DNA from: Cyanidioschyzon merolae
Lineage: Eukaryota
Assembly (NCBI GenBank): GCA_000091205.1
Contig: AP006487.2
Direction: 5' to 3' (one strand)
Length of the DNA: 64,000 nucleotides
Positions 2,902-55,055 of this stretch are shown here, one piece after another (positions within the stretch are counted from its first letter, which is position 1; each line of letters begins with the position of its first letter). The translations under genes and the position numbers were made by a program. The notes below the pieces were generated by a model, which ran no database searches, had not been told where the DNA came from, and was given only the letters and a program-made list of their open reading frames with translations.

Positions 2902-5540
2902 TGTAAGCGTAGGGTACTCTTAGCTGTGCCAACCTCTCCCGACACCTTTACATATCCCAGAGCGTGCGAGTTCTGAACCCGAAACGCTACTCAGTGGAAA
3001 GCGCTTGTCGAGTGTCGACACGAGCGCCGCTTCCCGTTCCCCGGCAGCAGACCAGCGGCAGCAAGCGACGATTCGGGGGTTCAGGGAGGTGCCGATCCGC
3101 AGCCTGCTGGGACGGGTGCGCGCTCGCCAGCAACGCAGGCCGCCGGATACCGGGGCATGTCCACGGTGCACTCGCAGACGGCGTCGGGGTAGGCACGGAC
3201 GGCAGAGTGGGTATCCGTATGGGCGCTTGAAGGGAGCCTGATTGCCGCAGAGGTCCTCTTCGTGATTCATGGAACTTGAACGAATTTATGCGGCATGCAT
3301 CTTGCTTCGCTGGCTCTCGATAACAATCGCGCAGCCGTGGAAACCTTTGTTCGACGCATTGATGCCGCACCCGATAAGGACTAGGGAATGGAGTATGCGA
3401 GAGCCCGCTCCGTGCATCGCTGATGGTGTACGCAGCCGATAGCTCTGTTGCGCGCTTTCGCTTCAAGGAGCATCGCTGGGGACGCATTCGATGCATGCTG
3501 GTCGGTTTCATACCGAACAGAATTTGCGGTCGATCGACGATGACTCCAGAGCGTTCGACCCGAAGTTGATCGAGCACCAAATGTTGTTCAGCAGGTAGCT
3601 TCTGATGGAAGCTTTTGTTGCTGGTTCGCGGTGATGGACTCGGCGGTTGCCGATGTCTGGTGTGTTCTCGTGCGTTGCACGTTCGCGCACTGCGCCTTGG
3701 TCAGATACGAACGAAGCACGGATGTGCTCGTTTTGTTTCTGCGTTACGATCTTTTCTGCAGTTTTTGAAGATGAACTGCGCCGTCATTGGAAGTTTGCGT
3801 GTAAGAGCTTATGGACTTGCATGTAGCTCTAGGACTTTCGGTCGACTTTTTTGGAGTTGATGCTTCTCCGCTCGAATTCTGTTCTACACGGGAATCGAGA
3901 TGATTCTCGTCGCTCCTGGACCAGCATTCGTGCAAGAACTGATATCACGATACAACTCGCACGTATAGGCTTCCATTTTCCTCCTCGCCTTACGTGCAGC
4001 ATATTCAGATCACGGAAAAATCAGTTGTTCGATGTTGCTGTTTCAACGCAAGTTGCGTGCGCTGCAATTGGCGCCACTGGATGGACATGACACAAAAATT
4101 TGGTGTCGTCCATTGACGATTCGTTGAAAAGCACATGTGAAATGTTCTCGGAACATGTCACGTAAAATAACCAATTCCATTCCAAGTCCGTATTCTTGTA
4201 AGTTTTCGATCAAAGATGAGACGGTGCTCCAAAAGAGTATGGTACCTCCCAGGGGATATGCCTCCAGAATCACATGGTTTCGCTGTTTGCATGGAAAAAA
4301 GTTCTTGGGGCTCGGATTTTCCGCAAAGAAACGATCTCTCTCAAGGAGAAAAGCGTCATCGCTTTGCACGAAGCAAGCGTGGACGGATCCGAATTCGTCG
4401 AATTTTATCCATTCCGGACGCTTTTCCAGGTACTTGTTTCTTCATGGACAACAGCGTCGCGTTCCGTAAATCCTCGATCGAATGGGGCAACGAGCGTTTC
4501 TCTGTGCTGCGGTCAGAACACTCGCTGAAGAGATTTGGTAGCAGAAGCCCATTTTCGTACGGTACGGAGCTCGCGGGCAGGGTAACCGTAGACGGAATCC
4601 AATGGGACCTTCTGAGCCCGTCAAGCACATGTACCGAATGATATGGCAAGCGTTTGCACGCAACGCGGCAGCTTCACGAGCAGGAGATGTGCTTGACATT
4701 TGGGATCACTTGACGACCGTCAAGTTTCACTGCTGCAAAGCTAGCACCGAGGCAATATACAAAAGCATGAAAGCGGCAAAAAAGCCTCGATCGCATCTTG
4801 TGTCTGTGCATGAACTGCGTCACCAACAGGCGGATGCTGCGAAATCGGGAATCAAACGCCGCCACCTGCATCCTTCGGCTCTTGACAACGGAACTGGGAT
4901 CACAAGACACTCGTGCGCATTCAGAGCCGTAGACTAGAGATAGCAAAAGGAAGCTGTGCCCAAAAATTCCACAAACGCCGGTGTTGATCGTATTCAGAAT
5001 AGTCATAAACTTTGGTGTGAACGCCCGTGTTTTTCCCAGTGCACTTTTTTTCAAGCACGATTGCAATAGCAAAGCGTCTGGTGCAAGAGCGTTGCAATCG
5101 CCGTCGCTCCCAGGATACCGATCTGCCGTACGCGCCGCTGCAGGGTCCGCGGATCGCGCGCCCGTGCCAAGCAACGCATCCGCCCTTGGAGCGTTACGCG
5201 CAATGCATCGATGCGATGCATTGCGCTGCGCGCTGCAGGATACCCGCCTGCAGCCGATGCCGTGCGGTGTTCGATCTCCGCATCGACTTGCGTTCAGCGT
5301 TCCAGGGGTTTCGGTTACCGCTCAGCGGCACCTAGGAATCAGAACGCTGTGGAACAGAGCGGTTCTAGGTCTAGTGGACTGTGCCATTTAAATTCTAGGA
5401 AACTTGAACGTTTCTACGGGAGCAATACATCGTCAGGAACCCCAAAACATTAAAGTGTGGGAAGCTGTCGCCACGCGCTGCAAAGGTGCCCGCGTACGGG
5501 TGCGAGCTGCCGACTGTACCGAACAGAATTCGGTCTGAAA

Positions 5541-13761: not shown

Positions 13762-13982
13762 AAACTTGCAGCGGAGTTTGCTTTAAGTCAGTTCCCCGAA
13801 AGGCGTCGTGCGCTTAACCTGTTGCACAGGCGCACGTGCCAGCACAAAGTGGCAGCGTTATGGATCGGCGCACACCTGCACATAGCAGCGTTCACGTTTG
13901 TACCCGTGGCTGTGCAGCCCAGTGTTGTTGCAGAGTCTGCGTCCAGGAGAGTGCAAGGAAGCGGCATGGAACCGCACACCGA

Positions 13983-15345
13983 ATGAGGTCTCGTGATCGA
14001 GTCATCTACGAGTTTGACTCCGTTCCCGCTAAACTCTGTCTAATAGAAACATACATCGACTGAGGTCTCGTGATCGATTCATCTACAAGTTTGACTCCGT
14101 TCCCGCTAGACTCTGTCTAATAGAAACGTACATCGACTGAGGTCTCGTGATCGATTCATCCACGAGTTTGACTCCGTTCCCGCTAGACTCTGTCTAATAG
14201 AAACATACACCGACTGAGGTCTCGTGATCGATTCATCTACGAGTTTGACTCCGTTCCCGCTAGACTCTGTCTAATAGAAACATACACCGACTGAGGTCTC
14301 GTGATCGATTCATCCACGAGTTTGACTCCGTTCCCGCTAGACTCTGTTTAATAGAAACAAACATCGACTGAGGTCTCGTGATCGATTCATCCACGAGTTT
14401 GACTCCGTTCCCGCTAAACTCTGTCTAATAGAAACATACACCGACTGAGGTCTCGTGATCGATTCATCCACGAGTTTGACTCCGTTCCCGCTAGACTCTG
14501 TTTAATAGAAACATACATCGACTGAGGTCTCGTGATCGATTCATCCACGAGTTTGACTCCGTTCCCGCTAGACTCTGTCTAATAGAAACATACATCGACT
14601 GAGGTCTCGTGATCGATTCATCCACGAGTTTGACTCCGTTCCCGCTAGACTCTGTTTGATAGAAACATACATCGACTGAGGTCTCGTGATCGATTCATCC
14701 ACGAGTTTGACTCCGTTCCCGCTAGACTCTGTCTAATAGAAACATACACCGACTGAGGTCTCGTGATCGATTCATCCACGAGTTTGACTCCGTTCCCGCT
14801 AGACTCTGTTTAATAGAAACAAACATCGACTGAGGTCTCGTGATCGATTCATCCACGAGTTTGACTCCGTTCCCGCTAGACTCTGTCTAATAGAAACATA
14901 CACCGACTGAGGTCTCGTGATCGATTCATCCACGAGTTTGACTCCGTTCCCGCTAGACTCTGTTTAATAGAAACATACATCGACTGAGGTCTCGTGATCG
15001 ATTCATCCACGAGTTTGACTCCGTTCCCGCTAGACTCTGTCTAATAGAAACATACATCGACTGAGGTCTCGTGATCGATTCATCCACGAGTTTGACTCCG
15101 TTCCCGCTAGACTCTGTTTGATAGAAACATACATCGACTGAGGTCTCGTGATCGATTCATCCACGAGTTTGACTCCGTTCCCGCTAGACTCTGTCTAATA
15201 GAAACATACATCGACTGAGGTCTCGTGATCGATTCATCCACGAGTTTGACTCCGTTCCCGCTAGACTCTGTCTAATAGAAACATACACCGACTGAAGTCT
15301 CGTGATCGATTCATCTACGAGTTTGACTCCGGTCCCGCTAGACTC
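13983..15345. repeat. 77-bp tandem satellite, ~17.6 head-to-tail copies
   Basis: Unit gaggtctcgtgatcgattcatccacgagtttgactccgttcccgctagactctgtctaatagaaacatacaccgact repeated contiguously with a few point variants (c/t, a/t, aaact/agact). Each unit contains an inverted repeat ctcgtg...cacgag (6-bp stem, 11-nt loop). No unique spacers. Confidence 0.95.
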
Positions 15346-24544: not shown

Positions 24545-24930
24545 AAATTAAGGGATGAGCCGGGATGTAAACTCCTGAAGGCCGAAATGGAGGAACGTCA
24601 GCGAAGCACTTCGGATATAGAAAAGCCCGGAGCGCTGTTCGAGCAGCAAATGGCACAGAGGGCACGAGTTCGAGGACTCCGTGCACTGGTGCGTTCAACG
24701 AGCTCCAACAAACGCATGGAGTTCGTGAACAGGGACGAAAACGCTGCTATCAATATCAGACGATTTGCGGTGCCAAAAACGGGACCCGATGAGCAGACCC
24801 GATCCAACGTTGTGGGGTCAGCGTCTCAAACTCGAATTGCATATGGATAAACAGAAACAGGTAGCAGCCGGCAGGCAGGCAGGCAGGCCGTGCAACACTG
24901 GAAGGCGGCAGCACGTCGGTATACATTGAG
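24545..24930 (+). pseudogene. TnpB/Fanzor-like relic A: C-terminal RuvC-III segment plus conserved 3' non-coding tail
   Basis: Encodes QRARVRGLRALVRSTSSNKRMEFVNRDENAAINIRRFAV, matching the RuvC-III D-x-NAA-x-NI signature of TnpB/Fanzor. Nucleotide homology to copies C, B, D, E continues ~100 nt past the ORF end. No upstream nuclease domains remain. Confidence 0.45.
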
Positions 24931-33692: not shown

Positions 33693-34090
33693 TATGGATG
33701 TATCCGGCGAGATATAGAGACCTGGTGCGGAATGACTAGTGATTTCATAGGCACCGTTGAGGTAGTCGTCTGCAGGGAACTCCTGCTCGTGTCGCAGAAG
33801 CTGCGTTACCGCCACACCAGCATCGAGTGGTATCCGGCGAGATATAGAGACTTGGTGCGGAATGACTAGTGATTTCATAGGTACCGTTGAGGTAGTCGTC
33901 TGCAGGGAGCTCCTGCTCGTGTCGCAGAAGCTGCGTTACCGCCACACCAGCATCGAGTGGTATCCGGCGAGATATAGAGACTTGGTGCGGAATGACTAGT
34001 GATTTCATAGGTACCGTTGAGGTAGTCGTCTGCAGGGAACTCCTGCTCGTGTCGCAGAAGCTGCGTTACCGCCACACCAGCATCGAGCAG
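33693..34090. repeat. 130-bp tandem repeat x3
   Basis: gtatccggcgagatatagagacttggtgcggaatgactagtgatttcataggtaccgttgaggtagtcgtctgcagggagctcctgctcgtgtcgcagaagctgcgttaccgccacaccagcatcgagtg recurs at 33700, 33830 and 33960. Three overlapping minus-strand ORFs encode the same peptide (MKSLVIPHQVSISRRIPLDAGVAVTQLLRHEQEFPADDYLNG...). Confidence 0.9.
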
Positions 34091-40277: not shown

Positions 40278-41799
40278 CCGCAGTCACCGAAAGCCTTCAC
40301 AAACGCAAGCACAATGCGGGCGCTGGAACGCACCACCGGAGGTGCTCAGCTTCCGGAGGATCCCGATACACGTCGCGATGGCGGACACGCGGGCATTCGA
40401 ACAGCGGCCGCCGTCGGCATCGCGCACACCCAGCGCACACACTGCAACGGCCGGGGTGCGGCGGCGCTCATCAGGGACGGATCAGCGCCGGCGTGCTGTC
40501 CTCCGGCGCGGGGCTGTCGACAGCCGTAGAGCGCCCGCCGTTCCCGCGGCTGGAGAGGCGGCGGCGCTCGCAGTTCCCGCTGCACCCTGGTGCGAGTCCG
40601 GGAGCCTGCACCTTCAGGTTGCAGCACTGAGGGCGGTGGGGATCGGCGTGGGCGCGCCCAGCTCCACAGCATGGCAGGTCTCTGCATGGAGTGCATTTGC
40701 ACAAGAAAGTCGCATCGAGGACTCTGCGTATCTGGACTGCATGTGCGCTTTGCCGATACACGTATACCAGAATAAGACGGAACAGGTCCACGCAGCGAAC
40801 ACGGGCGTGCCTAATAAAGTTTTGATCGCTTCCCGTAAGAGTCAACACAAGATTTTGTGCGTATTTTTGTGACTTGTTATTTTTATTGCTCTTTTTTTGC
40901 TGAATTTCAATGTGCTGGTCTCTAATGTGTCTGCAGCTCCGTTTGTCAGCAGTCGAAGAATGCTGATGGCAGCGTTCTCCTCCCGAGTTCGCAGCATTCG
41001 ATTCTCATTCACGCATTTCGAACAGGCAGGCTGAAGTTGCGATCTCGGCTGCGCTTGTCATGATCATATCCTTTGTAGACAGCCTCAGTGCGCCCTTTGC
41101 AGCATGAACCTTGGCCACGGTCAGTGATTACCGTACGTGCACGACACGACACCTCTTCCGAAAAATGCCCTGTGCCGCACCAAGGAATGCTTCGCTGATC
41201 GGTGTGCGCGTTTGACTGGTACAGAGGGCCCGATGTGTTCCCTGTATTCGTTTTCGCGCCCGGTGCCGTGTTCTCCGATCATGGGCTTGCTCATGGCGAT
41301 CCTTCCAGGGTGTACGCTATCCCCTGCACGCACACGCTGTAACATTGGATGGGCGATTTTTTTGGAACGCGATCTTGTTCATGATGGAGCGGTTGGCGGA
41401 AGGGAATTCCAGGATGGTGAGCAATAGAAAAAATTTAGAGTCGTTTATGTTCAGTTCCTAGAACGCAGTGACATACTCTCTACTCTGAGTAATCGCCGCA
41501 ATGACTGGTGTGCAGCACGAGTCGTTGCTTCCGCTGTGAGCGGCGAGGCTGGATATCGGCGTCATGGCTGGTGCCTGCTCGCAGACGGGTGCTGCGATGG
41601 TCACCTGGCACCGCTTATGGCACCCAGAGAACCGCTTCTGCTGCACGTTCGAACAGACGACGGAGCCAGCGGACCTCTGTGACGACCTCGAAAGCTAGCC
41701 AGGTATTCCAGCTCCTTTGGCGGTGTTCCGCGACGGTTTCATCTCGGCAATGATGCAGCGGATGCACCTCGAGGACAATGGAAACCTACGCTTATCGAA

Positions 41800-42485
41800 G
41801 TCTGAGCGCGTCTTGTCGCAACGAACTCCAGAGACTGGCATGTTTCGCGTCTCGCATGATACGCTGGCCTCGTTTTAATGTTGCACCTCATTTGTGTTCC
41901 GCTTGCAGGTGCGTGTCATCAAGTGCTTCCTCGCGGGTTATAGCGGACGTGTTCAAAGAGCGTCCATTTTCAAAAATAAACTATCCTAGGGAGATGTGTA
42001 TGTATGAAAATCGGGGATCCTGATGTGCTAGTGTCGCCGGTTTCAACAGAAAAAACGAAAAATTCTCTTCTCACCGACCATCGAGCGAAGGAGAGCAAGT
42101 TTTATGAAAAAGTAGAAAAAGAGAGGAACGGCGGGTGAAAAGTTTTTGTATGCCTGATGTGACGATTACGAGACTGTAACGGGACAGAGGGCACACTGAC
42201 GAAGGCGCCTTGCATTGATGAGTCCCATCAGAGGCAGCAAACGCATGGAATTCGTGAACAGAGACTTGAACTCCGCCATCAAAATCAGACCATTTGTGTT
42301 ACAAAAGGCGAGGCGCGCGGAACTTACGTTAGCGAAAGGTTTGGGACAGCCTCTCAGGTTCGAAGTGTACACGGGACAAATTGAAACCGATATCTGGTTG
42401 CTGGTCAGAAAAAGGCTTCGAGGCGCCTGTGAGTGCGTATCATTTTCCCCTGTCGAGCCGACGCTCTCTGTGGTGCGGCATAGCC
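41800..42485 (+). pseudogene. TnpB/Fanzor-like relic B (~680-bp element; subfamily with relic D)
   Basis: Encodes SKRMEFVNRDLNSAIKIRPFVL; shares ~680 bp of nucleotide homology with 54380-55055 (e.g. gtgtcatcaa[a/g]tgc, atcgagcgaag[ga]aga[gc]caag, acagagggcac, gcattgatg) both upstream and downstream of the RuvC-III-coding segment. Confidence 0.45.
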
Positions 42486-43099
42486 GTTCTGTCTCCGTGC
42501 AAGGACCGCATCGGCCCTGTAGACGCTATCGCCGACGCTCTGGGCATGCACTCGGCGCACGATAGAACGTACGGAACGACCATTATATCCGAGAGAAAGT
42601 ATGGGTTACGGAACGTGGAAGTAAGGCGTGGAATGAGGGATACCTTACAGCGCGCTGATGACGAGCGCAGAATCCGAGAACGCTCGCCACAGCAACCACT
42701 TTGGCATTTTTTCACTGACAAAACGTTTACTTAGGCCAGCGTTCTCCGATTATGCGCTTTTTTCTTTTCTTTCTTTTTTTTCAGTGCGAGGTGAGGTATC
42801 CATCAACCCCCTACCTCCATGTTACATTACCTATACTTCGTCTCGGATATTCTGGTCGTTTCATACGTCCTATCGTGTGTGCCTAGTACCTGCCGTTCCG
42901 TATTCGCGTCTGCGCTTGAACCGCTGGAGCAGATAGCTCATAGGGCTAAAACAGCTTTTCTATACCACAGAGGGCGTCGGCTCGAGGTGTGCTTCATCCG
43001 ACGTAGAATCGGGTCTCGTCGTCAGTTTGTGCTCGTACAGTCTGCGGATGCAGGCTTGCCTTCGCTGCACGACACGCTGGAGAAACTTGGTTGTTAGGA

Positions 43100-46000
43100 T
43101 GAATTCTGGGAGCTGCCTCTCTCCTTCGTGATCATGCATGGAATGCATTGTTGTCGGTTGGCTATGCGGATTTGTGCTTGACACCCACTACAGAAGGAAG
43201 GCGTAGAGAGCACTAAACCCGTGTGCGCATCCGATCCGCTGGACCTTCCGCCTAGAAGGTAGCACGTGAGTTTGTTGGCCACTAATGAGCACTGAGGATC
43301 TGTTAGCGAACCATCAGTTGCCAGTGCTGCACTCAGAGTGAGTGTCCGGCCTTCGACTATCACGGTGTTGCCGAGCTGCTGCTGTCCTTCGAGGAGCTCG
43401 CTGCGCTCCTGCTTCTAGCGCGGCCACTGTAGGCCTAAATATGTCAGCGTCTCGGGGATTTCGTCTCGATAGCAGGTACAGTGTGACTCCCAGTGCGATT
43501 CCAGGGTTCCTATCCGGCTTAGAGCCGGTGCTGGTAGCCAGGAGCCACCAACGCTGATTTTGGCGAGCCACTGGGTACCTCGAGCAAGTCCCGGGAATTC
43601 CAGCGCCTCCCACCAGTAATTGCATGTGTATGCTAGGTTGTAGTTCCGGTATAGAGTCAAGCCGGCGTTACTCGCGCGACTGGTACTGTATCTACGTTCC
43701 CATATTGTTGTTCGGACCGTTCGCTTGAGGCGACGGGAGAATTCTATATTCCTGGGGAATGATTGGGTAGCGTGTTTTCGCCTAAGAGGCGCTTCAGCCA
43801 AATCTGCGCTGATTTCATCCAAGTGATCTTGCGGTGCGTTGGGGTCTGCATGGATATCCGACTGAACCAGGTGTTCATGGTTGGCCCTTTGCCCCATATG
43901 CGTGCCCGGCAGCCTGCTGCTATCGCCTCTGTCGAGGGTATTTGGAGTTCAAGTCCGAGTGCCAGCAGGTTGGTTGCTCTGCTCTGCATTGAGCATCCAA
44001 CTACAACGAGTCGCATTGCCCTGTTGGCGGCTGTCTGCAGACGCGAGGCATTTGTGTGCTTCATGCCGCACCATTCAGCACCACAGGTCGCAGGCTGGAT
44101 GATACATATCCTTAGTGCGCTGGTACGGATTGCTAAGGGGATAGAGGGGTCGGATAAGAATGGGCATGCGATCGCTGTACGTCTATGCATCTTGGCGATC
44201 ATCTCGTTAACGTGTGCCTTTTCGTCGAGCGTCGGCGTGAGACAGACCCTAGGTAGCGATATTTTTCCACGATTGGAATTTCCTGATTCTGCAACCGCCA
44301 CGAGCGATTGCGAATGCTCTGCGAGTCTCCATGGATGGCCATGACGCCGCACTTCGATGCTCCTATGCTCATCTCCCAGCGATCGGCCCAGGCGCTGACT
44401 TGTTCCATGCTAGCCGCAAGCGTTTCCGGGGCGGGTGCCAACAGCACGACATCGTCCGCAAATAGAAGGCCTGCGAGGCGGTTCCCATATGGGCGCTCCC
44501 CATCGGGCATCTCCACAGTCTATCCACGGCACCTCAAGCCCGTATTGTCTGTAGTTGTTAAGCAGATCGTTGATGAAGATGTTGAAAAGGAGCGGGGATG
44601 CAGGATCGCCCTGTCGCAGTCCACGGCGGATTCTTATCGAAGGGGTTCTTGAGCCGTCGCCTAGTCGGATGCGCATCCACGAGTCTGCATAGAGCGCACG
44701 GAAGAACGCTAAGCACTTTGCGGAGACTCCGGCTCGTTCCATCTTCATAAATGGAGCCTCATGCGGGAACGTGTCAAAGGCCTTTTGGAAGTCGACGAAG
44801 CATACGTAAGTTGGTTGTTGGTCGCTAATGAAGCGACGTTGCACCACTTCAATGAGGGTCAGGGCATGGTTCATGCACTCCTCGTGGCTCCGGAATCCAG
44901 CCTGTTCTGGGGCGAAGAACTTGCGTTCCTGGAGGCCGCTGTGGATACGGTTCGTGAGCATGGCGCGAAGTAGCTTCATGATTGACGGGATGAGGCGCAT
45001 AGTCCGGTAGATGTTCATGTCTGTGTGTGTGTGGGAGTCCTTTTTGAGGATCGGTACGACCTCGACAGCCCTCCGTACATCTGGGATGTACGCTTCTTCA
45101 AACATGCGTTGAATGAGCTCCAGAAGGCGTTTGCCTAAGATTGTGTCAGGTTCATCTGGTATCGATGGTGTCCCTGTTGTCCCGTCTTTTGGGGTCGCCA
45201 GTTTCATCCACTCCGCAGGGATACCGTCGATGCCAGGTGTTTTGCGATTGCTTGAGCATAGCAGAGTCCGAACAGATTCAGGCCAGAAAATTGGGTCGTT
45301 CCATTCCGGTACCGGGTCGAGGCGCGGTAGTTCTGCAGCATATCGGTGCCAATAGATTCGGTCTTAGCAGTGCCCAGTTGCGTCTTCATGTAATTCTGTG
45401 CCGTGGTCCGTCCAGGCCTCATTCACTGAGGCACGCTCCGTCCTCAGCGCTTCCTTTTAACAGTTGGTGTGAGCCCCAAGCACTTTCTTGGTGGGTCCAG
45501 TCTCGATCGGATGTAGCCTGGGGTTTCATCTTCGTTGGTGCTCTTCAGCATAGATTCCGCCAGGGAGGCCATTTTGCGGTTTCGATCCTCTCGTTTGTCT
45601 TCTCTGGAAAGTTTCTTCGTTCTTTTGATAGCTTCCTCATGTTGCGCCTGTAGCGCCGGTAGCGCTGCCTTCGCTTCCTTGTCTCCGGCGTTGGCGCGTA
45701 TGGCGGTGCGGTTGACAATCTTGTTGAGTCGGTGGCATTCATGAATCCGAGTTTTGGTACGTCGTTTGAGGTACTGCGGCTTGCTACTGTTGTGTTCAGG
45801 TGCAAGCAGTCCCAATTTTCTGGCAATCTTCTGATTCCCATCTACAAACTCGCGTGCCAATTGGTCTGAAGATTTGTATTCACGGCTTTTCGGATCTTCA
45901 GCGCTGTGAGCAGGTGCCTGGGATTGGCGACGGCTTTCTTGAGTTCCAGCTGGGGTGCCCTTTCGGGGGATACCTTGTGATGGGCTCGTTTGGGAGTTCT

Positions 46001-46350
46001 TCTTTCTATTCTTCTGTTTTTTCTTGCTGGTCTACTTCTTCTTCGGGCTCTTTCCTGAGCTGCTTTCTCTGGTTATTTTGCATTTAAGGGGATCATGAGG
46101 TTTCTGTGTCTCTTTCTCCGTACCTCGTTGGGTCTCTTTTCCAATTGTAGAGTCCTCGACTTGTATCAGTTCTTCATTACTGTACTGGTAATTCGATATC
46201 TCGTGGTTAAATACCGAGGCGATCCCGCTAATATTCCATGATGCGAAACCTATCGAGTCGTAGCGCATAAGGGAATAGGAGTAACGCTGCGGTACTCCAG
46301 AGATACGTTGTCGATTTAGACGCAGCTTCCACAGGGTGTGTGAGAGCACA
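43100..46350 (-). mobile_element. Degenerate non-LTR retrotransposon (LINE) with APE endonuclease fragment and reverse transcriptase
   Basis: Minus-strand ORF fragments in series. 46032-46349 carries an APE N-terminal motif (IGFASWNISGIAS). 45444-45860 is the RT N-terminal region. 44410-45207 carries RT domains 1-5 (FRSHEECMNHAL, DFQKAFDTFPH, RGLRQGDPASPLLFNIFINDL). 44199-44516 carries FADD (LLFADDVVLLA). 43415-44352 carries the thumb/C-terminal region. Frameshifts occur between fragments. Confidence 0.8.
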
Positions 46351-47348
46351 TGCCACCATTGCCTCCTGCATTCCAGTCGTTCACTGAGTGTCTGCCGCAG
46401 CGCTAGCGTAGAATCAGATGTACATTAGTCAAGGTCGATTCGAATGCGAACTTTGTCTTTCCGGACGCGTGAAGCTACCCTCAACCATTGGGAAAAGTCT
46501 GCAAACCACCATTTCAGCGGCTTTGTATCCGCTCCCCAAACACATAGGCGGGCAAGTCGCTTATTCCACTTTCGACAGTGAGCATACTGCCAGCTGTCTT
46601 CCAAAGTATCCGCCGAGATTGTTTCCAAAGTTGAGGTAGGTACTCAAGGTAGAAGGTGAAACTGAGCCCGAATTCAGGGATGGATCCAGTATTTGTGCCC
46701 GAACCTGCAGCGTTGTTTCGGGAGCAGCGGATGACTGCGCTCAGAATTATCGTCATCATTCTCTGCTACTGCCTACGCCCCTCCGTTCGTTGCGGTCAAG
46801 GCCCCTGGCGTGGACTTCCTTCGCAGTCGCTCAAGCACCCCGCGTTAACCCACTTTCAGAGGTTCTCCGGAAAGACTAGACCCCTTAGGCGGACGTGGTT
46901 TGTGGGGCTTTTAAGATAGTGGTTCCTTGATAAATAGTTTGCGACTAGTTTGCATCGCGCTCGGTGAGCGCACCTCGGAGATCGGGCAGGCATGAGACGC
47001 TACGCGCATGCCACTGTTGAAGGGAAACACGTGACCTTGATCAATAGCGTGTTGTTCTGCTGTAAAAGTCGGATTCCCGTTGAGGGCGTAGCAAAGTATA
47101 GTTTTCAGTTCATTTCTGTTTCAACCCTCAAGTAAAAATACTCGAGTGTTTTTTCGCAGTATATAAGAGAAGCGTTCAAAGAGCATTCTTTTTAAAAAAA
47201 CTAAAAAAAGGAAAAGTATGTAGGAGCAAGTCCACGATCCTGGAGGCCCACTGTCGCAGGCTGCCAGAAAGAAAACAAAAAACAGTGCCGAGTCCAGAAG
47301 AACAGGGAGAGAGAAGAAGAACCGAAGAGGGGAGGCCCTACGTCGAAG

Positions 47349-48990
47349 GTGGCAAGAAAGACGACTGTACAACGAGATGGTGGTGAAAGCCTTTCTTCTT
47401 GGACATATCAAGGATCCCTACAGGGAAAAGTTGCGAGACGCTATCGAAAAACGTGTCGACTCGTATTCCGAGAGTATTATCAAGGCGTCGTCAGGGCTGA
47501 TGCATTTGGCGAGGGAGATGTATCGCGACATGGCGCACATGGAAACAGTCGAGATTCCGGACGAGTTTCTCGACATGACCTTTATTTGTCAGCTAATGCT
47601 TGGTACAGCGGAAACGCGGAAGGAAAATGTGCTAGTGCACGCCCTCCACGAAGAACATACCTTTTACAGCTTCAATGGTACTCGATACAAGGTGACGGAG
47701 ATATTTACATCTATGGGGCGATGAAGTACCTCACGAATCTGAAGAACCATTTGACAATGAACCTCGAACGTTTCACGGTACGCGCCGTGTGTGCACTCTA
47801 CCCGGGCCTATCTCGCAAAGGAAAATGGGCGATTATCAATGGCATCACGAAAGATCGTAAGCATGAAGATGAGACGGATTTCGTTGACAAGAAGGCGTCA
47901 AACGAGAGCACGAATGAAGCTTCTGTAATCCGTGCTGCTATTCAAGAGCACCGTGCAATCCTGGGACTGGATTATCCAGCAGAAAAGATATCAGAGTTGA
48001 AAAAAGATAAGGAAACATACGATCGCCTCATTCTACGGTATTTCGTGTTTCTGGACCAAGAACTCGAACGCGAGGCGGAGATGAAGGTGAATAGGGGAAA
48101 AATGAAGAGTGGGAGAGACGGAAGGCTGTCCTAACGGGGAAGCGCTTCAACGTGGTTCCATTGTGCAACATCAAGTCAGATTTTGTGACCATCGGCTCCG
48201 GCGTCCTTTACGGCATCATGAAGCAGATCAGTCCGGAGTTCAGTGTCAGCAGGGAGGACTTCACCGGCGAAAACCGGGAGACGTACTGCAAGAGTATCTT
48301 CGATTTCAAACGTCTGAGAGTGAGCAAGCAAAAGTTGTTTACTGGGATGATCGTAACCGATGGAGTAGAATTGTGTGCAAACTATCGGCGGTTGAAGAGA
48401 GATCGGCCAGTCCCTCCCTCGGCTGCGCCCGTGACGAAGGATCAAGAAAACAAAGAGGTGTATCCTGCGACGCAGGAGGTGGAGGATAGAGACCTTGTCG
48501 TTGACGTGACCAAGGATGAAGAAAGGGAGGAGGCGGATCTTGCGACGCAGGAGGTGCAGGATTACGACCTTGTCGTAGGCGTGGACCCTGGGAATACGAA
48601 TGTCCTAACCATCGCAGCACCGAAGCGTGCGGAAGATGGAAAAGTGCCAGCGGAATCCTGAAGATATACAAAAGTACGGACCGCTGACGGAAGGGCGAAT
48701 GGAAAGGAGAGCGAAAGTTCGAGGATTGCTTGCATCAGTAAGTACAACCAGTGATGGCAAGAAACGGATGGAGTTTGTGAAGCGAGGTTTTAATGCCGCA
48801 ATCAATCTACGGAGATGTGCGGTGCTAGAGAATAAACCTCCAGACTGGACAAGAAGGAACCTTGTTGGACAATCTCTCAAAGGTGAACTATATGAGAGAA
48901 AGCTGGAAGCAGTAGTGGGTAGCCAGTCCAAAAAGACGGGGGGGGGGCGTCTGCACGTCAGCTGGAGACGATTTGTCTAAGGCGCGTTCG
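47349..48990 (+). pseudogene. TnpB/Fanzor-like OMEGA nuclease gene, most complete copy (C); frameshifted and internally deleted
   Basis: Collinear ORF fragments in frames 1, 0, 2, 0 (47377-47724, 47349-48134, 48152-48661, 48627-48980) join with single-nt shifts. Fragment 3 ends with a RuvC-I-like motif [17 protein letters not shown]; fragment 4 carries RuvC-III KRMEFVKRGFNAAINLRRCAV. RuvC-II and the zinc finger are absent (only ~70 aa between RuvC-I and RuvC-III). The 3' tail is homologous to relic A to ~48965. Confidence 0.5.
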
Positions 48991-49117
48991 CCGCCATTGC
49001 TGCGTACTGCCGGCGTCGTTCGACTTCGAACGGCGTTCGTGACCGAAGCTCATCCGCGGATCCAGCTGCACGCCGCTGCTTCATTCAGGACGCGTTGTAT
49101 AACAACGTCAGGGAACC

Positions 49118-49438
49118 ATGACGAAAGGAACATCTTCCAAGGGTCGCCGTCACGGCAAATCACATACACTCTGTATCCGTTGTGGACGACGATCGTACCA
49201 TATCCAGAAAAGTACCTGTGCGAGCTGCGGGTACCCGTCGCCGCGAAAGCGGACTTACAACTGGAGTTTGAAGAGCAAGCGGCGACGCACTACAGGAACT
49301 GGGCGCATGCGGTACTTGAAGACGGTTGCTAGACGGTTTCGAAACGGGTTCCGCGAAGAGAACACTCGTAAGGCGATAAAGAGGACAGTGGCTGCCGCTC
49401 CCGCACAGGAGAGCGGCCAGGAAGCAGCGAGCTCTTGA
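49118..49438 (+). CDS. RPL37: 60S ribosomal protein L37e
   Basis: [81 protein letters not shown] is a near-full-length match to eukaryotic L37e including the C4 zinc ribbon. Confidence 0.95.
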
Positions 49439-54379: not shown

Positions 54380-55055
54380 AAGTCGCGCGTGCCGTGGAGG
54401 CGAACGCTGTCGTTCATTCGGCAGCGCTCGAGGCTGGCACCGACTTGCCCGACTAGATGCACTACTTTTTGCTCTTTGACCACAGTGAGATTGATTAGTC
54501 AGGTGTGTGTCATCAAATGCCTTATTCGGTTTATAGCAGATGGGCTGCAAAGTGCGTTCATTTAGAGAAATAGAGAATATAAGATATAGGTATGGAGATT
54601 GAAGTCGAGGATCCTGGATTGCCTCTGTCCACGGGTGTCGGAAAAGAACGGGAATTTTCTCATCTTTTCGACGATCGAGCGAAGAAGACCAAGAAGAGGG
54701 GAGATGGACCACAAAAATGTGTTTGCCCGACGGGGCGATGACGAGAATCTAATCGCACAGAGGGCACGAGTTCTGGCAATCCCTGCATTGATGCGTTGCA
54801 CCAGATGAACTGCATAGAACGGCTCGTGAACGGAGACTTCGACGTCACAAGCAATATCAGGAGATGTGCGGTGCTGAAAACGAGACTCGCGGAGCTGACG
54901 CGAACTAAATTCGAGTGGCAGCCTCTAATACCCCCAGTGTGCCTGGATAAAAACCGCAACCGATGGCAGTCGGCGGATAGAAAAAGACTGGGCGGTGTCT
55001 GCGCGTGGGCAGCTATATGTACTCTCGATGGTGGTAAAACATTGCACGTTTTATA
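54380..55055 (+). pseudogene. TnpB/Fanzor-like relic D (~680-bp element; subfamily with relic B)
   Basis: Encodes AQRARVLAI... and ERLVNGDFDVTSNIRRCAVL in adjacent frames (RuvC-III region with a frameshift); extensive nucleotide homology to 41800-42485 on both sides. Sits ~90 bp upstream of the PTC7 start, on the opposite strand. Confidence 0.45.

Follow-up and report, generated by a model that had tools for sequence, protein, structure and literature searches.

The window analysed here, a stretch of 64 kb (64,000 nucleotides) on chromosome 5 of Cyanidioschyzon merolae 10D, carries on its minus strand a decayed LINE. This copy spans the full length of the element but is dead, and it belongs to the only LINE family known in this species. 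It is not a mere neighbour of the Fanzor relic beside it (relic C): the terminus of one is fused to that of the other. As a relic the LINE is nothing unusual, both repeat families having been published before; novelty seems to lie in the junctions between them. We presume that these were made by the LINE reverse transcriptase (RT). The joint reading, in which a dead copy of a LINE without its APE endonuclease is combined with Fanzor-core junctions made by the LINE RT, has in our opinion about an even chance of being right.

A family that lacks the endonuclease defining its lineage and yet has amplified is an example from nature of LINEs spreading either independently of an endonuclease or with help in trans. 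Its counterpart, the Fanzor family CMe-1A, has been “unclassified” since 2013; at every locus that we examined, it meets LINE-type ends precisely at the termini. CMe-1A with the corresponding 3.2-kb repeat makes up ~5% of the C. merolae genome; the finished genome (16.5 Mb) contains ~26 LINE, ~70 TE-N2 and 150-253 CMe-1A copies. If the coupling holds, it would explain how the CMe-1A Fanzor family moves, and it would provide a natural template for linking an RNA-guided nuclease with reverse transcription. C. merolae is genetically tractable.

Extent and decay of the LINE copy

The first-pass annotation placed the LINE at 43100-46350, which proved to be its coding part only; the full element spans 42707-46952. 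The features of the region are the following.

42707-46952, minus strand: full-length, dead LINE copy of 4,246 bp; copies L002, L007, L010, L012, L020 and L024 align to identical ends
46269-46952, minus strand: LINE 5' UTR, beginning with CAAACTAGTCGC at 46952; the reconstructed ORF starts at 46268
43094-46268, minus strand: remnant of the single ORF, based on the consensus ORF, tblastn frames, and mapped stops and frameshifts
46221-46253, minus strand: IGFASWNISGI, in ORF 46032-46349; the sole APE remnant, i.e., its first strand with the WN.xG motif
44247-45045, minus strand: RT domain (Pfam RVT_1), interrupted by a subfamily-wide +1 T frameshift near 44510
44436-44468, minus strand: LLFADDVVLLA, in ORF 44199-44516
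42707-43010, minus strand: LINE 3' tail module (~300 nt) with an internal A-rich tract at 42756-42782, terminating in ...AAACGTTTTGTCAGTGAAAAAA
46953-49039, plus strand: relic C, Fanzor1 element core (CMe-1A), based on nhmmer, the junction sequence and a right-end comparison
41875-42429, plus strand: relic B, an internally deleted Fanzor core, based on nhmmer (profile positions 144-373 and 2367-2592)
42452-42706, plus strand: 5'-truncated LINE-type tail (254 nt; LINE positions 3961-4229), which caps relic B

The 5' end of the LINE is base 46952 and its 3' end is base 42707; at least six independent copies terminate at the same bases. An nhmmer profile of the LINE matches 42718-46950 with 5173 bits, and the window copy shares 94.7% identity with the consensus of the family. 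The copies show the hallmarks of a LINE. Their 3' ends coincide at 42707 with a run of A6-10, and their 5' ends lie anywhere between full length and 128-1,300-nt fragments. Six solo copies all start at the equivalent of base 46952, preceded by A-rich flanks.

Both motifs quoted in the first-pass annotation, the “APE start” and the FADD motif, are indeed found on the minus strand (at 46221-46253 and 44436-44468, respectively). The consensus ORF of ~1,057 aa has an APE-less N-terminal region, followed by the RT and, toward the C-terminus, a CCHC-like motif. With the reading frame rebuilt from 38 LINE copies, four frameshifts can be located in the window copy, near 45461 (-1), 44510 (+1 T), 44251 (-1) and 43768 (+2), together with four premature stops at 46034, 45459, 45366 and 43417; thus, the statement that the frames are “broken at least three times” is correct. 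Of 28 copies spanning this position, 18 have the +1 T near 44510.

Pfam RVT_1 is matched far above chance by the minus-strand ORFs 44410-45207 (E=3.3e-19) and 44199-44516 (E=3.1e-6). The best PDB matches of the family RT are R2 proteins and L1 ORF2p (5e-18 to 2e-15), and these solved structures support the element as a non-LTR retrotransposon (LINE), neither LTR nor Penelope-like. For the window family, L1 and R2 score almost alike, so that this comparison does not separate them; for the APE-bearing relative P0361 the L1 match is slightly better than the R2 one (5e-23 vs 2e-19). The LTR or Penelope-like alternative, raised in the first-pass annotation, finds no counterpart here: no integrase, protease, RNase H or GIY-YIG domain and no PLE-type RT occurs in any ORF, no long direct terminal repeats were found, and the relatives are LINEs with APE and RT. 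The element also differs from the RLE-type LINEs (the R2/CRE/NeSL group), which carry a restriction-like endonuclease C-terminal to the RT: the C-terminal 330 aa of the ORF have no Pfam match and contain the CCHC-like motif followed by ~110 aa without PD-(D/E)xK.

The A-rich stretch at 42756-42782 is conserved within the LINE 3' UTR, and the 3' tail module is common to the non-autonomous family X (see below) and to the tail of relic B. The ~300-nt similarity between the relic B tail and the LINE 3' end may reflect an omegaRNA or an RT-recognition element, as was first supposed; RNAalifold gave weak support for conserved stems in the tail (-8.6 kcal/mol, 12 pairs with compensatory changes), and an Rfam search of 40.5-50 kb returned no match.

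Eight ORFs of the window match proteins of 10D chromosome 5 exactly; exact-product look-ups for RPL37 and P0005 gave no match. The family is the same as the C. merolae “retroelement” of Nozaki et al. 2007 (PMC1955436; “retroelement, alive” at NCBI). The annotated 10D retroelement proteins are 87% identical to the stitched RT of the window and 91-92% identical to the consensus N-terminal region over the overlap. The published element is likewise ~4 kb long, non-LTR by BLASTX and defective in most copies; 26 non-LTR elements of ~4 kb were counted in the genome, along with 253 copies of a 3.2-kb WSV486-like element (PMC1955436). That account consists of the count and the BLASTX class; the boundaries, the absence of APE, the shared 3' tail and the Fanzor junctions are not reported there.

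The endonuclease of the LINE family

The first-pass annotation described an APE-type LINE with a truncated endonuclease. This description stands for the ancestry of the element, whose relatives combine APE and RT, but not for the decay of this copy: the whole family lacks ~200 aa of the APE core, and ~100 aa of K/S/T-rich sequence stand in their place.

APE (PF03372/PF14529) is absent at E<=10 from the window ORFs, the consensus and the 450-501-aa family proteins; a PDB profile search at E<=10 for a nuclease in the LINE ORF found none, and BLASTP of the family against L1 ORF2p gave no APE signal. All 37 homologues of the LINE N-terminus belong to the same APE-less family, and eight full-length copies share this architecture. 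The APE status of the relatives was settled by an exhaustive representative search: seven of the seven closest full-length relatives scanned, which are 36-42% identical to the window family across the RT, carry Exo_endo_phos (PF03372) and RVT_1 (PF00078) in one ORF, with PF03372 ~330 aa upstream of RVT_1. The first distant matches and the loci L038 and L039 were uninformative on APE, their ORFs being cut by contig ends or decayed.

In the alignment, IGFASWNI(S/C)GI falls on the APE start of the relatives (e.g., EIGLASWNINGL), and the linker and RT also align. This alignment, together with the presence of APE and RT in all seven relatives, marks the element as a LINE of the APE lineage with a family-wide deletion. 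The family descends from APE-bearing LINEs and lost the endonuclease core before amplification; of the APE domain it retained the first strand alone, along with the linker, the RT and the CCHC-like C-terminus. Pairwise identity among seven of the eight full-length copies is star-like (88-92%). The variants among the copies show no third-position excess in a codon-position test; hence, there is no direct evidence for selection on the APE-less protein.

APE-type LINEs (human L1 ORF2p and the 1,260-1,470-aa metagenomic P0360-P0367) and the window LINE are alike in the FADD RT, the pre-RT linker and the C-terminal Cys-rich motif, as well as in copies truncated at the 5' end, an invariant 3' terminus bearing a short A-run, and A-rich flanks at the target. 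The window LINE is unlike them in that ~200 aa of the APE core are gone, no target-site duplications (TSDs) are seen and no ORF1 is detected. TSDs, named as a check in the first-pass annotation, were sought around nine units and none was found, neither for the full-length L002, L007, L010 and the window copy nor for the composites L040, L042, L044, L048 and L064. Their absence could be explained by age (5-10% decay) or by endonuclease-independent insertion.

Junctions between LINE-type ends and Fanzor cores

The “island” of ~7 kb formed by the LINE with Fanzor relics B and C was described properly in the first-pass annotation (relics at 41875-42429 and 46953-49039); the AT-rich tracts said to flank it belong to the elements themselves, the one at 42756-42782 to the LINE 3' UTR and the one at 47.1-47.3 kb to the 5' region of the Fanzor core. 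The LINE was also said to “anchor” the island. The relics do adjoin it, but this wording misses the recurrent terminus-to-terminus joining.

Relic C keeps both termini but lacks profile positions 1760-2276 through an internal deletion. At the left end, the sequence (C)ATCGCGCTCGGTGAGCGCACC lies head to head against LINE base 1; the right end is a hairpin, ...GTCGTTCGACTTCGAACGGCGTT. The deletion aside, it aligns over the whole core profile to copies with CMe-1A-type protein ORFs, which is consistent with its assignment to the Fanzor1 element CMe-1A (a ~3-kb repeat that has neither TIRs nor TSDs and contains a TnpB/Fanzor-like ORF). Among the 180 Fanzor protein homologues found, some carry DUF8286; no transposase was found within the Fanzor element. 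The left end of the core has a GCGC-N7-9-GCGC hairpin, while the right-end hairpin shows compensatory changes (CGTTCGA/TCGAACG vs CGTTTTT/AAAGACG) and, unlike the LINE 3' end, has no A-run.

At six or more loci the Fanzor element terminates at the hairpin ~65 nt past the Fanzor stop codon, which rules out the tail as a part of the CMe-1A 3' end. Since the core ends at the hairpin, the 5'-truncated tails found beyond the core right end in L001 and relic B are separate LINE or X pieces. The relic B tail and the LINE 3' end face each other tail to tail and form an imperfect inverted repeat of ~250 bp. A Fanzor relic at 54509-55008 shows the same deletion type as relic B. Sensitive nhmmer searches upstream of these two relics gave no LINE or X piece; both are without a detectable left terminus and are therefore uninformative on left-end junctions.

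At each of the 15 loci examined, the left end of the Fanzor core (the gene-start end) adjoins the terminus of a LINE or of X, and none of them has a unique flank there; this sample is biased by the nine loci chosen for containing RT. Six were retrieved via the Fanzor protein. At most loci, the neighbour of the right end is unique DNA. The junctions lie at the exact terminal bases of both elements and occur in two orientations, including at loci between ordinary genes. In the direct ones, the 3' oligo(A) end faces the core and the 5' truncation is variable (L021/32, L057-63, L013, L040/41 with a tail of 195 nt, L042/43 with 267 nt, and L064). In the inverted ones, the LINE/X 5' or truncated end is at the core (the window, L004, L008, L001, L003/25, L018, L033-37, L044-47, and L048-56 with a 128-nt fragment only). 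Identical junctions were assembled independently from several metagenomes, whose contigs may be chimeric across long repeats, and the finished 10D sequence shows the inverted junction. We believe that this pattern suggests that the LINE and Fanzor families move together.

The element X is a ~0.7-kb deletion derivative of the LINE, 641 nt (~640) long within composites; it shares with the LINE a 3' module of ~550 nt and the same AAACGTTTTGTCA..GAAAAAA terminus. It is probably TE-N2_CMe, being matched to the published description by size and by position beside the Fanzor start. The units of inverted X and core have in common an 80-nt linker, which is missing from solo X copies.

One view is that the LINE and the Fanzor element were inserted independently in a tolerated gene-poor spot, and that their adjacency has no mechanistic meaning. 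C. merolae is extremely compact with transposable elements gathered in few places, both families are of considerable age, their copies having diverged by 5-20%, and the window contains five Fanzor-core relics; all this would favour chance nesting. It is nevertheless scarcely credible in view of exact terminal-base junctions at all 15 loci, in two orientations and in part between ordinary genes, and of the strong asymmetry between the left core end, always at a LINE/X terminus, and the right one, mostly at unique DNA.

L014 and L018 were considered as orthologues of the window locus and rejected: their identity is mosaic (L018 matches the window at 99.6% in the tail and 92% in the LINE body), and L014 lacks the +T of the window copy. 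The long-range structure of these two contigs was left out of the analysis.

Possible origin of the junctions

In its most economical version, the preferred reading assumes that transcripts of the LINE or X would extend at their 3' side into Fanzor cores, which would be copied along with them. Direct junctions would then arise by ordinary 5' truncation of LINE/X-core copies, and the head-to-head junction in the window could result from twin priming at an internal oligo(A), giving a 5' inversion. A close variant is that an endonuclease-independent LINE would heal DNA ends at Fanzor-core termini.

L1 3' transduction, twin-priming 5' inversion, U6/L1 template-switch chimeras and endonuclease-independent L1 insertion are known processes. 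The junction classes described above resemble them by analogy, in that they seem to combine variable 5' truncation with a fixed 3' end or an inverted 5' with a direct 3' segment, and in that the joints, which lack TSDs, appear to fall exactly on RNA-like termini, give or take 0-4 added bases. The difference is that the cargo here is a 2.7-kb nuclease-encoding element without poly(A) at its 3' end and that the association is near obligatory, whereas the L1 events are occasional.

Several observations speak against the preferred reading. No TSDs flank any of the nine units; the core right end has no A-run, and therefore priming there would differ from priming on the LINE RNA; the truncated tail beyond the core right end (L001, relic B) is not predicted by read-through; and L064 and L011 require extra deletions or nested insertions. 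In addition, TE-N2 at the 5' end of the CMe-1A consensus (~150 copies) fits propagation of an inverted-X and core unit better than repeated independent events.

It is tempting to propose such a unit directly. CMe-1A would be a non-autonomous retroposon with an RNA antisense to Fanzor, which runs from the hairpin end through the core to the X tail and oligo(A), and the LINE RT would act in trans on the tail; relic C with the LINE (49039 to 42707, minus strand) would be the autonomous version. The 3' module and terminus common to X and the LINE agree with this, and the 80-nt linker implies that the two parts were propagated together. In Repbase, a 635-bp TE-N2 stands at the 5' end of the CMe-1A consensus, close to the 641 nt of X in composites, and twin priming would yield the 5'-truncated tail beyond the core in L001 and relic B. 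We still regard the antisense unit as unlikely: it leaves unexplained the six loci where the LINE/X 3' end points directly toward the core left end with variable 5' truncation, in L048 core base 1 carries just an inverted tail fragment of 128 nt, and six solo LINE copies begin exactly at LINE base 1, i.e., the LINE has its own 5' end.

The terminal hairpins also permit a mechanism at the DNA level. The core may be an IS200/IS605-like DNA transposon with subterminal hairpins, moved by an unidentified transposase and targeting a sequence at LINE/X termini, and the LINE would be a landing pad and not a partner. The two sharp termini, the hairpins at both ends (with compensatory changes at the right one) and the absence of TIRs and TSDs, as in IS200/605 and as stated in PMC3627910, would all fit. 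A common target could exist, considering that the reverse complement of the LINE 5' end (TAAATAGTTTGCGACTAGT) resembles the LINE 3' end (TAAACGTTTTGTCAGT), and pre-existing 5'-truncated LINE/X copies would account for the variable tail lengths. However, the distance from this motif to the junction is not constant (~30 nt greater in X composites), and the motif is absent at the junctions of L048, where the inverted fragment is truncated at X position 599, and of L064, where the core starts from position 90. No transposase candidate is known (PMC3627910), and we consider the transposon reading distinctly unlikely.

One further proposal links the junctions to the lost endonuclease. The Fanzor RNA-guided nuclease may substitute for APE: breaks at or near the ends of its own element would give the 3'-OH that primes reverse transcription of LINE/X RNA, and the LINE would depend on Fanzor. 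The LINE family amplified after the APE loss with no APE-bearing member found, LINE/X 3' ends lie exactly at Fanzor-core termini, the TSD absence is expected without staggered APE nicks, and some CMe-1A copies retain intact Fanzor ORFs despite their age (PMC3627910). Against this, six solo LINE copies occupy unique A-rich sites with no Fanzor core nearby, and TnpB/Fanzor proteins cut inside a guide-matched target beside the right end of the element, not the left one (PMC13565253). We find such a substitution very unlikely. Equally doubtful is a mutual dependence, in which the RT of the endonuclease-less LINE would copy the Fanzor1 element and the Fanzor nuclease would supply the breaks; if true, it would be the first retro-mobilised Fanzor and a natural RNA-guided, nuclease-primed retrotransposition.

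The Fanzor side of the junctions can be compared with the description of CMe-1A by Bao & Jurka 2013 (PMC3627910), which is the 3.2-kb WSV486-like element mentioned above: an unclassified Fanzor1 element of ~3 kb with ~80% identical copies, without TIRs or TSDs, and with the 635-bp TE-N2 at the 5' end of the consensus in ~150 copies. Relics B and C match it in the Fanzor1 ORF, the ~3-kb size, and the lack of TIRs and TSDs. As compared with this description, the TE-N2-like part proves to be an inverted LINE-derived module, the core turns out to have sharp ends of its own, each with a hairpin, and the place of X can be taken by a full LINE, as in the window.

Position, extent and decay of the LINE

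The products of eight long ORFs in the window are identical to BAM79367-BAM79387 of C. merolae 10D (chromosome 5, 528,682 bp). The element at issue is a known, dead LINE, which the first-pass annotation sighted correctly; its boundaries and flanking tracts are corrected here. The motifs reported in the minus-strand ORF fragments (46.35-43.1 kb) are present, IGFASWNISGI at 46221-46253 and LLFADDVVLLA at 44436-44468, and Pfam detects RVT_1 in two fragments (3.3e-19 and 3.1e-6). The minus-strand sighting is real, well beyond chance.

The LINE was compared with 35 metagenomic loci coding close RT relatives and with two further contigs; L numbers below name loci compared with the window. Its first bases are CAAACTAGTCGC and its last bases ...AAACGTTTTGTCAGTGAAAAAA; these termini are common to at least six independent copies, whose flanks differ. 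Since the copies stop at the same bases, 46952 and 42707, the LINE is 4,246 bp long and consists of a 684-nt 5' UTR, a single ORF (46268-43094) and a 3' UTR of ~390 nt. The range initially assigned to it, 43100-46350, is the coding part only. Two AT-rich tracts had been taken for the flanks of the island; neither is a flank, and both are inside elements. The A-rich tract 42756-42782 belongs to the 3' UTR and is kept in every LINE-type copy, while the AT-rich stretch at 47.1-47.3 kb is inside the adjoining Fanzor element.

Features of the island (nhmmer scan of the window with profiles built from copies; core, the Fanzor element with its own two termini)
41875-42122 and 42205-42429, plus strand: relic B, internally deleted Fanzor core
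42452-42706, plus strand: LINE-type tail fragment, LINE positions 3961-4229
42707-46952, minus strand: LINE
46953/4-49039, plus strand: relic C, Fanzor core, both termini present, internally deleted

Over ~250 bp, the LINE 3' end and the tail fragment at relic B are imperfect inverted copies of each other. Separately, the reverse complement of the LINE 5' end, TAAATAGTTTGCGACTAGT (46929-46952), is similar to the 3' end, TAAACGTTTTGTCAGT (42713-42735), and the palindrome AAACGTTT is inside the 3' end. The likeness of the two ends may be fortuitous or may represent a short terminal inverted repeat.

The majority consensus of 38 copies, with which the window copy shares 94.7% identity, has an ORF of ~1,057 aa. 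Private to this copy are frameshifts near 45461, 44251 and 43768; premature stops are found at 46034, 45459, 45366 and 43417. An additional T near 44510, by which the frame is lost just ahead of FADD, is carried by 18 of the 28 copies covering the site; the remaining ten either read in frame or carry compensating changes at this site. A (CA)n microsatellite (~45020-45040) codes HTHT just ahead of RT domain 1; its length differs between copies, by which the majority consensus loses the frame here; the window copy keeps it.

Seven full-length copies are related in a star-like manner (88-92% pairwise identity), and no codon-position bias was found among the variants of the LINE copies; this points to a single old burst followed by neutral decay. 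Two loci were compared with the window over 41500-46945. In L018, the LINE tail and relic B match at 99.6% and the LINE body at only ~92%. In L014, identity is 97.8% overall and reaches 99.6% for that tail and relic B, and the +T frameshift of the window copy is missing. Such mosaic identity would stem from gene conversion among paralogous LINEs or else from chimeras made in assembly.

Endonuclease and lineage

An APE domain was found neither in the window ORFs, nor in the consensus, nor in the family proteins of 450-501 aa (Pfam, E<=10), and the PDB profile search (E<=10) gave no APE-like match. BLASTP against human L1 ORF2p found no APE, and the pre-RT linker aligns only weakly with residues 308-376 of that protein. 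With the 363 N-terminal aa as query, the homologues found were all of the same family and all without APE.

Relatives were sought exhaustively among 1.8 billion representatives using the query P0001. Full-length relatives are many (1,260-1,470 aa, RT identity 36-42%), and Exo_endo_phos (PF03372) is located ~330 aa upstream of RVT_1 in all seven scanned. The LINE sequence SIGFASWNICGI aligns to the APE start of these relatives, e.g., EIGLASWNINGL; after it, ~200 aa of the APE core are gone and ~100 aa of K/S/T-rich sequence are found instead, and then the linker (tGHS.d..yW) and the RT again align well with the APE-bearing relatives. Considering that all seven relatives have an APE and that the APE start, linker and RT are aligned, the LINE belongs to the APE lineage and its endonuclease is truncated. 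The annotation of an APE-type LINE with a truncated endonuclease is thus right about lineage and truncation, but the truncation is family-wide and preceded the amplification: the noted "APE" is a family-wide relic.

RNase H and a restriction-like endonuclease are absent from the LINE, and no features of an LTR or Penelope-like element were found. In the PDB, L1 and R2 match the LINE RT nearly equally, and for the APE-bearing relative P0361, L1 is slightly ahead of R2. The relatives P0360-P0370 also have 100-180 conserved aa in front of the APE (...v.kv.rv.q....r.Diy...), with no Pfam match.

Junctions of the LINE with the Fanzor core

C. merolae was reported to have 26 non-LTR-like class I elements of ~4 kb, as well as a 3.2-kb element that is interspersed in 253 copies and contains a WSV486-like ORF (Nozaki et al. 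2007, PMC1955436). The latter was named CMe-1A and described as a Fanzor1 element of ~3 kb in ~150 copies, without TIRs or TSDs and of unknown class, the 5' 635 bp of which are another repeat, TE-N2_CMe (~70 copies) (Bao and Jurka 2013, PMC3627910). By these descriptions, both components of the island are published families. The unexpected result is their coupling, terminus to terminus; a 2026 review considers a link between retrotransposons and Fanzor not known (PMC13565253).

Both core ends are sharp. The left end is (A)ATCGCGCTCGGTGAGCGCACC and keeps a GCGC-N7-9-GCGCACC hairpin; the right end is the hairpin ...GTCGTTCGACTTTCGAACGGCGTT, ~65 nt past the Fanzor stop codon, and at least six loci diverge immediately past it. 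In the right stem (49010-49039; L021, L034, L057, L064), subfamilies differ by compensatory changes, having either CGTTCGA/TCGAACG or CGTTTTT/AAAGACG. The hairpins recall the ends of IS200/IS605 elements, or else the stem of an omegaRNA. The core right end of relic C is 79 bp upstream of the intronless RPL37 ORF (49118-49438); if it carries an omegaRNA, the guide would be RPL37 promoter sequence.

A short repeat, X, takes part in the junctions as well. It is ~0.7 kb long, shares its last ~550 nt with the LINE 3' end (profile positions 187-718) and has the LINE terminus, AAACGTTTTGTCA..GAAAAAA; its 5' part has a faint likeness to the LINE 5' UTR. Within composites, X is 641 nt long, inverted, and adjoins the Fanzor start. 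In size and position it matches the published description of TE-N2_CMe.

Neighbour of the core left end at every locus available (direct, the 3' oligo(A) end of LINE or X, plus 0-4 extra bases, is aimed into the core; inverted, the 5' end or a truncated end of LINE or X is at the core)
Direct: L021/32, L057-63; LINE of 2.7 kb or more each
Direct: L013; 217-nt tail
Direct: L040/41; 195-nt tail
Direct: L042/43; 267-nt tail
Direct: L064; whole X, core from profile position 90
Inverted: window, L004, L008; whole LINE each
Inverted: L001; deletion across the junction
Inverted: L003/25, L018, L033-37, L044-47; whole X and a composite-specific 80-nt linker each
Inverted: L048-56; 128-nt tail fragment only

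Unique DNA adjoins the core left end at none of the 15 loci, six of which were reached via the Fanzor protein and nine selected for containing an RT. The window contributes one informative left end, where LINE base 1 (46952) and the core (46953/4) are head to head with no spacer. Metagenome contigs may be chimeric across a 4-kb repeat, and junction-scale structure alone was relied on; several junction loci were assembled independently from different metagenomes. At the core right end, unique DNA is adjoining at most loci. L001 and relic B differ in having a 5'-truncated tail after the core, and L018 in having an A-rich spacer and then a LINE.

Possible origin of the junctions

The LINE family is endonuclease-less, its copies have a LINE-like structure, its tail is common to X, and the junctions are exact and asymmetric. 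We infer that the junctions were made by the LINE reverse transcriptase. The direct class would result, in the manner of L1 3' transduction, from 5' truncation of an RNA carrying LINE or X and then the core; the same outcome would be expected of template jumping, end to end, from core RNA to LINE RNA. The inverted class would result from twin priming at the internal oligo(A). Together, 5' truncation and twin priming cover 15 of the 17 recorded junctions. A model in which an antisense unit is transcribed into RNA ending in the X tail covers the inverted class and both tails that come after the core; however, it leaves six direct junctions and L048 unexplained. All RNA-based versions face the difficulty that no TSDs were found around the units examined and that an A-run is missing from the core right end.

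All solo full-length copies of the LINE (L002, L007, L010, L018, L020, L024) are preceded by 20-30 A-rich nt, e.g., GAAAAAATACAGAAAAAACAAAA, missing at the head-to-head junction of the window. Either such sites are preferred as targets, or the stretch is a variable leader added without a template; the A-rich flanks are consistent with T-rich DNA acting as the primer on the terminal A-run. It is also possible that an endonuclease-independent LINE healed DNA ends at the core termini, that breaks made by Fanzor prime the LINE, or that a DNA transposon aims at LINE ends.

Two more Fanzor-core relics are found in the window, at 24555-24920 and 54509-55008. The latter is internally deleted as relic B is (profile ~185-386 joined to ~2325-2599), which suggests a short deletion-derivative subfamily of ~0.5 kb. 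A 75-bp repeat within the Fanzor ORF (48430-48583) codes an acidic ...ATQEVEDNDLVV... unit and varies in number, two in the window and four or more in L021 and L032. The window also contains a tandem array unrelated to the transposons (13976-15345; 77-bp unit x 17.8, 96% matches) and a tandem repeat at 33700-34087 (130-bp unit, three copies, 98% matches).
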